Origin: Escherichia coli O157:H7
GTDB taxonomy: Bacteria > Pseudomonadota > Gammaproteobacteria > Enterobacterales > Enterobacteriaceae
DNA length: 64,000 nucleotides
Assembly: GCF_013167455.1 (NCBI RefSeq)
Contig: NZ_CP038328.1
Strand: one strand, 5' to 3'
Within the stretch, counting starts at the first letter, position 1; each line of letters begins with the position of its first letter. Below are positions 39,001 to 42,000 of this stretch, piece after piece. A program made the position numbers.

Positions 39001-42000
39001 TGGCCGACACAGCCGTACTGCCCTTTGCTCAGGTCTGCCTTCGGATGATTCAGCGTACTCATATCCTGCACATCATGCAGGCAGTGGTCGGCCGGAATAA
39101 TATCGTTATATCTGCAGGCAGCCCCACCCGGCGTAACTGTACTGCGGCGCGCCAGCTGTTTAATGCGCGGATCCGGAGCATCGTATGAATCCGGCAGCGG
39201 AAGCCCTTCACCGTAAGCCATGGCATTGGACTGCCCGGCCAGTACGATGACGTAGTACCAATCCGGCTCAGTTGCACCACTGACCACCACATCACCTTCT
39301 GCTGTAATCACCTGCATCAGGGTATAAGGGGTTATGGCCACCGGACTACCAAACGGCTGCCAGCCCTCTTTCAGTTTGTGTGTCAGCTTTTCCGCAAGGT
39401 CTGACGGCGACGCCGCCCTGACAACATCATAATGTTTAAATGTCATTATTCCTCCCCTTTCCGGGATTTTCCTCAACAGTTGCGGGCCACGGTCCGGCCA
39501 CAAGGAGAATCAAAAGAGGAGAACCGCAGCCCGCAAAACGAAAAAGGCCGCGCAGTTGCGCAGCCTTATAAACCCTGGTTAAAATCCACACGATAAAAAT
39601 GACAATGCAAGTATCTCATGCTGTTGCCCGAACCCACTCGGGCTTTTTTTTGCATGTAAAAAGGCTCCTGCGATGAGAAGCCTGGATATATGCCTAATCT
39701 CTGTATACAGCATGATGCCGGGTGCCTCCCGGTGAATTCTGCAATGACCAGACAGAATCCGCAACTTGCCTATACAATACGCAACCAAACATCTGTCATT
39801 ATGCCCCGCCGCTCAGGGGGATTCATCATGCAGGATTTTTTTAACAAACGCTCAGCATGTCAGGCAACAGTCAACTGCCTGAATTGTGAGGCATTTAACA
39901 TTTCACTGTCCGGTGTCTTTCCTGTAATAAAAAGCCCGCAAAAGAGAGTCAGGGCAGATAAGTGTGGTGTGGTGCGTTGTACTGGATTCGAACCAGTGAC
40001 CGATTGCTTAGAAGGCAATTGCTCTGTCCGGCTGAGCTAACAACGCAGAATACCGATAATGGACCGCCACCGGGGACTCCGAATCTCGCACAGGGTGACG
40101 TTCTTTCCTGATGAGCTAGTGGCGGTTGGTGGCCCTTGCTGGATTTGAACCAGCGACCTGGCGATTATGAGTCGCTCGCTCTCACCGCTGAGCTAAAGGG
40201 CCGATTGCTGAATAATAACGACGCATGATTAACTCCGCAATCTCATCCGTTACGAATGATTAAATCCTGTACTTCCCGCACCGTCTGCTCAAAACGTTCA
40301 GTCTCCAGTTCAACGCCAGTTGCACGACGTCCCAGCGCCATCGCTGCTTTCACTGTCGACCCCGACCCCATGAAGAAATCTGCAACCAGGTCTCCCGGAC
40401 GACTGCTTGCGCTGATTATCTGCTGCAACATTTCTGCCGGTTTTTCGCACGGATGTTTCCCTGGATAGTACTGCACCGGTTTATACGTCCACACATCGGT
40501 GTACGGCACCTGCACCGTCACACCGAAATACCGCCGCAGATGCTTATATTCACTCTGCAGCTCCGCATACTGTCGGTTCAGAGAGGCATACGTATCCACC
40601 AGCTGGTGGTGGGGCTTTTCCAGTTCACCCCGCTGATGCTTCTCTTCTGCCACCCGGGCAAACAGTGCCTGTAATTTCAGATAATCGCTTTCGTTCGGCA
40701 GCTGCCACTGACCGGCACTGAACCAGTGCGACACCATGTTTTTCTTTCCTGTGGCATCTGCAATCTGTTTTGCCGTTATCCCCAGGACAGCGCGCGCATC
40801 ACGAAAGTAAGCAATCAGCGGGGCCATCACATGCTGTTTCAGTGTCCTACCCTTCGCCTCATACCCGGCATCTTTCGGACGATACGGCCCCTGATAATGC
40901 TCTGCGAACAGAATGCGCTCTGTGGCGGGGAAATACGCCCGCAGGCTTTCCTTGTTGCACCCGTTCCAGCGTCCGGACGGCTTTGCCCAGATGATATGGT
41001 TCAGCACGTTAAACCGCTCACGCATCATGATTTCGGTGTCAGATGCCAGACGATGGCCACAGAACAGGTAAAGACTTCCGGCAGGTTTCAGCACCCGCCA
41101 GAACTGCGCAAGACACTGGTCCAGCCACTTCAGGTAATCTTCATCACCCGCCCACTGGTTATCCCAGCCCTCGGGTTTCACTTTGAAGTACGGCGGGTCC
41201 GTGACTATCAGGTCAACAGAATTTTCGGGTAACGACCGCATAAATTCCAGGCAGTCGGCGTTGATTAACTCACAACTGGATATTTTTACAGTATTAAGCA
41301 TGGATCATTAAGCCTGTCTCTGATAGGCTCATTCTGCTTTTGCGCAAAGCAGTGGGCCTGAGGTTTGCTTGTGAACCCAACGCATGAGCAGATGGCTGGT
41401 GGGTGCCCCTTACACCCACCAGCCGCCCATTTACCACAAATAAAAAAGCCTTCAGGACTGAAGGCGTCTGTAACAACCAAACTGATAGTCTGCCAGACCC
41501 GCCATAACCAGCTGGGTCAGTATTAACTGGCAGCGTTCGCGTGAAAGGTAAGTATTCTGCGCAATCTCCCCGACTGTCGCCGGGTCGGTAACGCTTAATT
41601 CATTAAACACCACTCTGGCGGTTTCTGTCATATCCTGCTGTTTCAGCATGTCTTTTTCCCTTTTCCGGTTAACGTGACACACCAATAACTCTTGTCGAAA
41701 AAGCCAGCAACCTGAAAGAACGGTATTAATAACCACCAGCGAATTTATTGCGCTGCTGTATATTACGGACACAAAAAAACCACCTTCCGGTGGCTTCCTT
41801 GTGCGAAAAAACTTGCATTTCGCCTCGCGATACAGCTTTGCGAAGCTTACAGGAATTCAAGCTGTTTCTGCGTAAAAAAGCAAGCTTTTTTTATCGAAAT
41901 GAATCGTGCATAGGTACATAAAGCATGTGTTCAGCCACGGCTAACCAACCTGCAATACGTTTCTCACATGTGCTGAAACACCATTCCGGGTGAGTACGAT

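Follow-up and report, generated by a model that had tools for sequence, protein, structure and literature searches.

The closest described relatives of the element considered here are four homologous short RNAs from prophages of Escherichia coli O157:H7 Sakai, EcOnc01a/b or AgvB (Sp10 and Sp17), EcOnc02 or AsxR (Sp5) and EcOnc03 (Sp9), a family of four that shares a conserved 3′ region of ~42 nt and differs in a variable 5′ region of 14–18 nt (Tree et al. 2014, Mol Cell 55:199, PMC4104026). In the same study AgvB was found to sponge GcvB and AsxR to destabilise FnrS. Among the unannotated small RNAs (sRNAs) bound by Hfq in Sakai, EcOnc03 ranked third in abundance; on Northern blots it appeared as species of 56, ~54 and 51 nt, destabilised without hfq (Table S2 therein), and 5′ RNA ligase-mediated rapid amplification of cDNA ends (RLM-RACE) revealed triphosphate 5′ ends with some heterogeneity. 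The same Table S2 lists a convergent RNA, EcOnc28, beside it. Published detection of EcOnc03 thus comprises Northern blot, 5′ RACE, UV cross-linking and cDNA analysis (CRAC) with Hfq, and the sequencing of cross-linked and ligated hybrids (CLASH) with RNase E. We have analysed a stretch of 64,000 nt (hereafter the window) from another E. coli O157:H7 genome (GCF_013167455.1, contig NZ_CP038328.1), in which the interval 39447–39969 (523 nt), situated between the start of an esterase gene and a tRNA-Arg gene of a prophage late region, carries the EcOnc03 sequence. The interval is almost certainly the moron-site spacer of the lambdoid prophage Sp9, which is not a Shiga toxin (Stx) phage, and it would harbour a convergent pair of Hfq-binding sRNAs, with a plus-strand terminator that forms the 3′ end of EcOnc03.

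The decisive evidence for assigning the plus-strand RNA to EcOnc03 is its exact match to the published one: the sequence AAATGACAATGCAAGTATCTCATGCTGTTGCCCGAACCCACTCGGGCTTTT (Tree et al. 2014, Fig. S4, PMC4104026) has a single, perfect occurrence in the window, at 39597–39647 (+). Sequence identity, family, position and the absence of stx were all observed directly in the window. The copy in Sakai Sp9 has the identical 51-nt sequence in the same prophage, at the same position and on the same strand relative to the late operon, and the interval is without any difference between the two. The original prediction, made from the DNA alone, had proposed a short antisense RNA ending at a plus-strand terminator in this interval, and the match to EcOnc03 bears this out. 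Overall, the gene can be placed at 39591–39651 (+) on the basis of Rfam, the published sequence and CLASH reads, with a variable 5′ head at ~39591–39611 and a conserved 3′ part at ~39612–39651. The published 5′ ends fall at roughly 39592–39597 of the window, and the reads from RNase E-CLASH (Waters et al., PMC5286369) start with GATAAAAATG, at 39592, and end with GGGCTTTT, at 39647. Published Sakai coordinates refer to NC_002695.1; their shift to NC_002695.2 at this locus (+137 nt) was deduced from the sequences of these reads. Counted from the inferred +1 (39591–39597) to the U-tract (39647–39651), the RNA would be 51–61 nt long, with a Rho-independent terminator at its end.

The terminator itself (39626–39651, +; terminator scan, RNA fold and the CLASH reads ending in GGGCTTTT) consists of GCCCGA-ACCCAC-TCGGGC at 39626–39643, forming a 6-bp GC stem, followed by T8 at 39644–39651; it lies where a terminator had been expected (about 39630–39660), with a tract of eight rather than the nine Ts originally read. 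It acts in the plus direction only, since the minus-strand version of the hairpin has no U-tract after its stem. Taken alone the hairpin is weak evidence, because a terminator scan over 3.4 kb returned 7 sites against 3.3 ± 2.1 in shuffled sequences. By prediction, the whole RNA folds (−13.9 kcal/mol) into the terminator and one small, weak hairpin.

Upstream of the RNA lies a putative sigma-70 promoter (39556–39585, +), with a −35 element TTGCGC at 39556–39561, an 18-nt spacer, a −10 element TAAAAT at 39580–39585 and a +1 expected at ~39591 (~6 nt downstream), in agreement with the published primary 5′ ends. The assignment draws on sequence reading and conservation: the block CAGTTGCGCAGCCT-N-CCTGGTTAAAAT-N5-CGAT is kept upstream of all three head types of the family (see below) in ~120 viral contigs. 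A generic promoter scan did not pick up this promoter, because its −35 element matches at only 3 of 6 positions. EcOnc03 would accordingly be a primary transcript of 51–60 nt that starts from a conserved sigma-70-type promoter of its own and is antisense to the late transcript, which depends on Q. The −35 element is overlapped by a second minus-strand terminator-like element (39534–39567, −; terminator scan), a hairpin at 39567..39544 with a 10-bp stem followed by TTTCGTTTTG. This hairpin has a fold z-score of −3.1, is kept in all three head types, and lies between the sRNA pair and the esterase, ~90 nt upstream of the esterase start.

The minus-strand partner is a member of the STnc100 family (39652–39860, −). 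It matches the Rfam model (RF02076) over its full length (model positions 1–206) with 175.2 bits against a gathering threshold of 47, and an EcOnc28 CLASH read maps within this match; this Sp9 copy holds the Hfq-bound EcOnc28 peak. Its own terminator (39657–39683, −) comprises a stem-loop at 39683..39662 and a U-tract at 39661..39657, with a fold z-score of −3.0 (none of 200 shuffles was as stable). The two genes converge, as their terminators, on opposite strands, are only 5 nt apart. A weak promoter-like site (−35 CTGACA at 39863, −10 AAAAAT at 39840) would give an RNA of ~175 nt, and a hypothetical species of ~240 nt would have to start around 39895, at the conserved block's edge. The closest relative is EcOnc27/sRNA103, whose position, 45–75 nt downstream of stx2B, corresponds to that of its Sp9 homologue, except that the latter follows tRNA-Arg and not stxB. 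On Northern blots EcOnc27/sRNA103 measures ~235–247 nt; overexpression of sRNA103 increases fimZ and espA transcripts, STnc100-type RNAs downstream of stx2B have also been found in outer membrane vesicles, and a 2026 preprint relates RNAs of this type to PasD sRNAs.

How EcOnc03 compares with its relatives was assessed by Rfam searches and by its occurrence in viral genomes. Its 3′ ~42 nt (AGUAUCUCAUGCUGUUGCCCGAACCCACUCGGGCU8) match both the AgvB and the AsxR model in the Rfam alignments, whereas its 5′ head CGAUAAAAAUGACAAUGCA matches neither. At the gathering threshold the AgvB model (RF02702) is found at 39591–39650 (+) over its full length, with 56.6 bits against a threshold of 56; in a permissive search the AsxR model (RF02703) covers the same plus-strand bases with 46.8 bits, below its threshold of 63. 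With AgvB of Sp10 and Sp17, EcOnc03 shares the promoter block, the ~42-nt 3′ part, the terminator, the position and the convergent arrangement. It differs in the head, which lacks both the CACAACA motif and complementarity to GcvB, in the dinucleotide preceding UUGCCC (UG in EcOnc03, UA in AgvB) and in the sequence of the convergent partner downstream. AsxR, which lies downstream of stx2B in the Stx2 phage Sp5, has a terminator hairpin and loop identical to those of EcOnc03 and is also convergent with an STnc100-type RNA (EcOnc27/sRNA103); its head, however, is shorter and different, and it is linked to stx, in contrast to the EcOnc03 copy of the window. With an AsxR score below gathering and no stx in the window, EcOnc03 falls outside the AsxR class, which is defined by that score and by a position 3′ of stx2B.

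The conserved core GTATCTCATGCNNTTGCCCGAACCCA occurs at no fewer than 120 loci (at least 120) in viral contigs, with only three head types among them. In the matches listed, the AgvB head accounts for 75 loci, none next to stx (64 without stx given enough flank, 11 with too short a flank), and the AsxR head for 19, all of them next to stx, none without it and none with too short a flank. The EcOnc03-type head was found at 30 loci: 6 next to stx (stx1AB), 20 without stx and 4 with too short a flank. Thus in six viral contigs among these matches, including Shigella phage 75/02, it is the EcOnc03-type head and not AsxR that stands downstream of stx1AB. The window copy also sits where family members typically do, at a moron site that follows Q/PR′ and precedes the esterase open reading frame (ORF), and is convergent with a second sRNA. 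Judged by its short length, conserved 3′ part, variable head and location, EcOnc03 classifies as the third member of the AgvB/AsxR family. Family members are built from a shared ~42-nt 3′ part (small hairpin and terminator with U-tail) and an interchangeable 5′ head of 14–20 nt that may set target specificity.

Already in 2014 the sRNA pair had been published, together with its moron-site position and its occurrence in Sp9, and Rfam includes both RNAs. The 522-nt interval has a match in 909 of 5426 E. coli genomes; 355 records are at ≥99% identity, and many complete enterohaemorrhagic E. coli (EHEC) genomes at 100%. No RefSeq annotation lies beneath it in any genome record listed, so sequence scans will keep rediscovering the pair. 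An abundant RNA with a mapped locus, whose head type is also found downstream of stx1 in some Stx1 phages, makes for a small but real question in EHEC biology.

By analogy with AgvB and AsxR, EcOnc03 would act in trans by base pairing on Hfq. Its position, antisense to the late transcript, could also point to a role mainly in cis, in which EcOnc03, a perfect complement of that transcript between the tRNAs and the esterase, would set off processing or attenuate the late or lysis genes and not act on host RNAs. The convergent arrangement is indeed kept in at least 8 Sakai prophages, and its purpose is stated as unclear in the literature. We nevertheless consider a mainly cis-acting role unlikely: the two relatives that have been characterised work in trans, on core sRNAs, CLASH recovers EcOnc3 (as the RNA is written there) with host mRNAs, and no evidence of a cis effect was found either in the literature searched or in the tests performed here.

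The recorded hybrids offer candidate partners for an RNA acting in trans. Cation and iron transport genes (mntH, fieF, bfr) were reported to be over-represented among the predicted EcOnc3 targets, and the best-scoring EcOnc3 interaction in the RNase E-CLASH data was with ompC (7 hybrids; Waters et al., PMC5286369). We verified this pairing in the Sakai sequence, where GCUGUUGCCC of EcOnc03 faces GGGCAACAGC, 245 nt into the ompC coding sequence; the 10-nt match is created by the UG dinucleotide peculiar to EcOnc03. In addition, AgvB1, EcOnc3 and AsxR each give hybrids with ECs4425 (Table EV7 of the same study), which is eptB. The family-invariant 11-mer GUAUCUCAUGC (39612–39622) is a perfect complement of GCAUGAGAUAC in Sakai eptB, spanning −2 to +9 of the start codon, and the hybrid site of all three RNAs is exactly GCAUGAGAUAC. 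The energies given by RNAduplex for full-length RNAs are inflated by large interior loops; these perfect 10- and 11-nt complements were relied on instead. Pairing with both eptB and ompC goes through the conserved part of EcOnc03. The two mRNAs are its best experimentally supported partners, a lead rather than a result, and no discussion of either pairing was found in the searchable literature. It is possible, if doubtful, that the conserved 3′ part of the family is itself a seed and not merely structural, so that EptB would be repressed by every prophage copy whatever its head, with the UG of EcOnc03 adding the ompC match. If true, prophage load would tune the cell envelope through EptB, the 3-deoxy-D-manno-octulosonic acid (Kdo) phosphoethanolamine transferase that modifies lipopolysaccharide.

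The second alternative concerns the history of the prophage, whose late region had been predicted to resemble that of Stx phages with an empty toxin slot. The gene order was confirmed by domain matches and by the annotation of the identical DNA in Sakai Sp9 (antiterminator, methylase, ileZ, argO, esterase, S, R, Rz), and it follows the order of Stx-converting lambdoid phages (933W/Sp5, H19-B/Sp15, Shigella phage 75/02), namely Q, tR′, (methylase), tRNAs, esterase, S, R, Rz. In contrast to these phages, the window lacks stxA, stxB and the stx promoter segment; it shares the synteny of the class but does not carry its toxin genes. As had also been noted, no ORF of toxin size is present in the ~520-bp interval (only ORFs of 40–116 aa), and searches for Stx1 and Stx2 A and B by tblastn, and for two cassettes by sensitive blastn, across the interval and the whole window returned chance matches only (E ≥ 0.12 for protein and E ≥ 0.46 for nucleotide).

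The interval matches 232 phage records, nearly all of Stx-converting phages. In the Stx1 phage (Shigella phage 75/02), window positions 39903..39346 are matched at 81% from 40 nt past the stx1B stop to the esterase start; in the Stx2a phage, 39889..39339 are matched from 46 nt past the stx2B stop, and 40353..39929 match the tRNA cluster plus 35 nt. Identity to the Stx phage counterparts is 81–83% for both the tRNA flank and the spacer between stxB and the esterase. Between them, a junction segment of ~24–40 nt in the window (39890–39928, −; blastn and pairwise alignments) stands where Stx phages have their ~1.34-kb stx segment with the cassette, and this junction segment is unrelated to the cassette beyond chance. 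The slot is therefore not empty: ~450 of its ~520 bp belong to a conserved spacer, likewise present in Stx phages downstream of stxB, and it is occupied by EcOnc03 (plus strand) and STnc100/EcOnc28 (minus strand). Stx phages have their cassette inserted upstream of the same sRNA pair; without stx, the pair directly follows the tRNAs in the window.

A former Stx phage that lost stxAB, with the interval as the scar, might be suspected from the recognisable flanks on both sides of the cassette site and from the EcOnc03-type pairs directly downstream of stx1AB in the six viral contigs (Shigella phage 75/02 among them). We regard such a loss as very unlikely. While the residual similarity anticipated for the stx flanks is there, no deletion scar was detected at the interval, no stx remnant, nucleotide or peptide, rises above chance, and the junction segment of 24 nt bears no relation to the cassette. 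The flanks are only ~82% identical to the Stx-linked versions and so imply no recent common ancestor, and the tRNA sets differ (two genes in the window, three in Stx2a phages and none found at the Stx1 phage locus). Furthermore, among the matches listed, 20 of the 26 EcOnc03-type loci whose flanks are long enough lack stx, as expected for a moron site that modular recombination fills or leaves unfilled. The distribution of head types relative to stx fits a pre-existing sRNA pair, upstream of which morons may or may not have been inserted and whose modules may have been swapped by recombination, rather than a recent deletion.

A further question is whether the plus-strand RNA is AgvB itself, acting as a sponge of the GcvB R1 seed. 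The AgvB model does exceed its gathering threshold, and the 3′ 42 nt of EcOnc03 are nearly identical to those of AgvB. On the other hand, the head CGAUAAAAAUGACAAUGCA has no CACAACA, the GcvB-target motif, and its duplex with GcvB (a query sequence verified as 100% identical in genomes) reaches −11.5 kcal/mol, the level of shuffled sequences (283/500 and 145/300 as good), while the AgvB head, as positive control, reaches −19.9 kcal/mol (11/500 and 3/300 as good). Tree et al. (2014, PMC4104026) also list EcOnc03 as a separate RNA. An anti-GcvB function of EcOnc03 was accordingly rejected, and its identity with AgvB is highly improbable. EcOnc03 is a member of the family that by function is neither AgvB nor AsxR, and the Rfam label 'AgvB' for EcOnc03-type copies, for which the gathering threshold was passed by only 0.6 bits, is functionally misleading. 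Finally, that the hairpin is a mere transcription insulator, half of a bidirectional terminator pair with no functional RNA, is scarcely credible and is contradicted by the Northern and CRAC data published for the identical sequence: in Sakai the RNA belongs to the most abundant of the unannotated sRNAs bound by Hfq, with mapped primary 5′ ends and a conserved promoter at the right distance, even though two terminators do stand back to back, 5 nt apart, and are followed by a third hairpin on the minus strand.

Several observations weigh against the main reading of this locus. The fold of the RNA is just modestly more stable than that of shuffled sequences (z = −1.8), and transcription, size and Hfq dependence are borrowed from the identical Sakai sequence. 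Against shuffle controls, none of 18 core sRNAs (of whose sequences only that of GcvB was verified) stands out as a partner of the EcOnc03 head, while AgvB–GcvB stands out in the same comparison. The CLASH hybrids number 1–7 reads each, and the gene ontology enrichment for cation and iron transport is based on single hybrids. No published sRNA target of EcOnc03 was found in the literature texts and tables searched, nor any validated regulatory target.

Among the core sRNAs, MicC, ArcZ and MicA form duplexes of −9.7 to −10.5 kcal/mol with the EcOnc03 head, inside the shuffle range. A weak MicA-like Rfam match lies opposite the head (39542–39617, −; 18.6 bits, E = 4.6). An anti-MicA function was rejected (duplex −9.7 kcal/mol, 46/300 shuffles as good), and the MicA-like match is probably due to chance.

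The genes around the pair are those of Sp9. Twelve kb of the window aligned to Sp9 of E. coli O157:H7 Sakai (NC_002695.2, 1768000–1780000) at 99.98–100% identity, with one exception described below. The late operon of the prophage is on the minus strand. Upstream of its esterase gene lie a Q-like ORF (41891–42433), a terminator-like hairpin (41465–41448, −; terminator scan) and, upstream of the tRNAs, a DNA adenine methyltransferase gene (40243–41301, −; NCBIfam matches under curated cut-offs, 'DNA methylase' ECs_1780 in Sakai). These are followed by a tRNA with a CAT anticodon (40127–40202, −; ileZ3 in the Sakai annotation) and tRNA-Arg(TCT) (39970–40046, −; argO3), both found by ARAGORN and Rfam. 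Downstream of the sRNA pair, the conserved ORF is a nanS-p-like sialate O-acetylesterase gene (37593–39446, −; 617 aa; Pfam DUF1737, SASA and DUF6645; ECs_1781 in Sakai). Directly after tRNA-Arg, an element CTTTTGCGGGC-T5 (39929–39960, −) is conserved with the Stx2a phage, whose version, upstream of stx2A, is a 7-bp hairpin with a U-tract. When 39900–39969 of the window was folded in search of a similar terminator, the stem proved degraded and no better than shuffles (z = +0.3).

The sole exception in the Sp9 alignment is a 1312-bp insertion in the window (44469–45780), ~4.5 kb from the interval and absent from Sakai Sp9. It contains the IS3-family transposase genes orfA (45400–45726, −) and orfB (44513–45403, −) together with an ALIL frameshift pseudoknot (45329–45445), and both size and host point to IS629. 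By this alignment the source strain is a Sakai-like O157:H7 or EHEC strain that has one more insertion sequence (IS) copy in its Sp9. Just past the insertion lies a sok antitoxin RNA (RF01794, 104 bits; 46142–46291, −), adjoined by a hok-type toxin gene that is annotated in related genomes as hokD or 'phage maintenance protein'. Upstream of this hok/sok module is the adhesin gene paa (adfO; ~46480–47238, −), recognised by identity to Sakai ECs_1772. At the other end of the late region, downstream of the Rz gene, positions 34579–34604 (+) agree exactly, over 26 nt, with the seed region of HnrS (EcOnc12, Sp9 copy), a 66-nt prophage sRNA for which repression of hha has been reported (2025 preprint).

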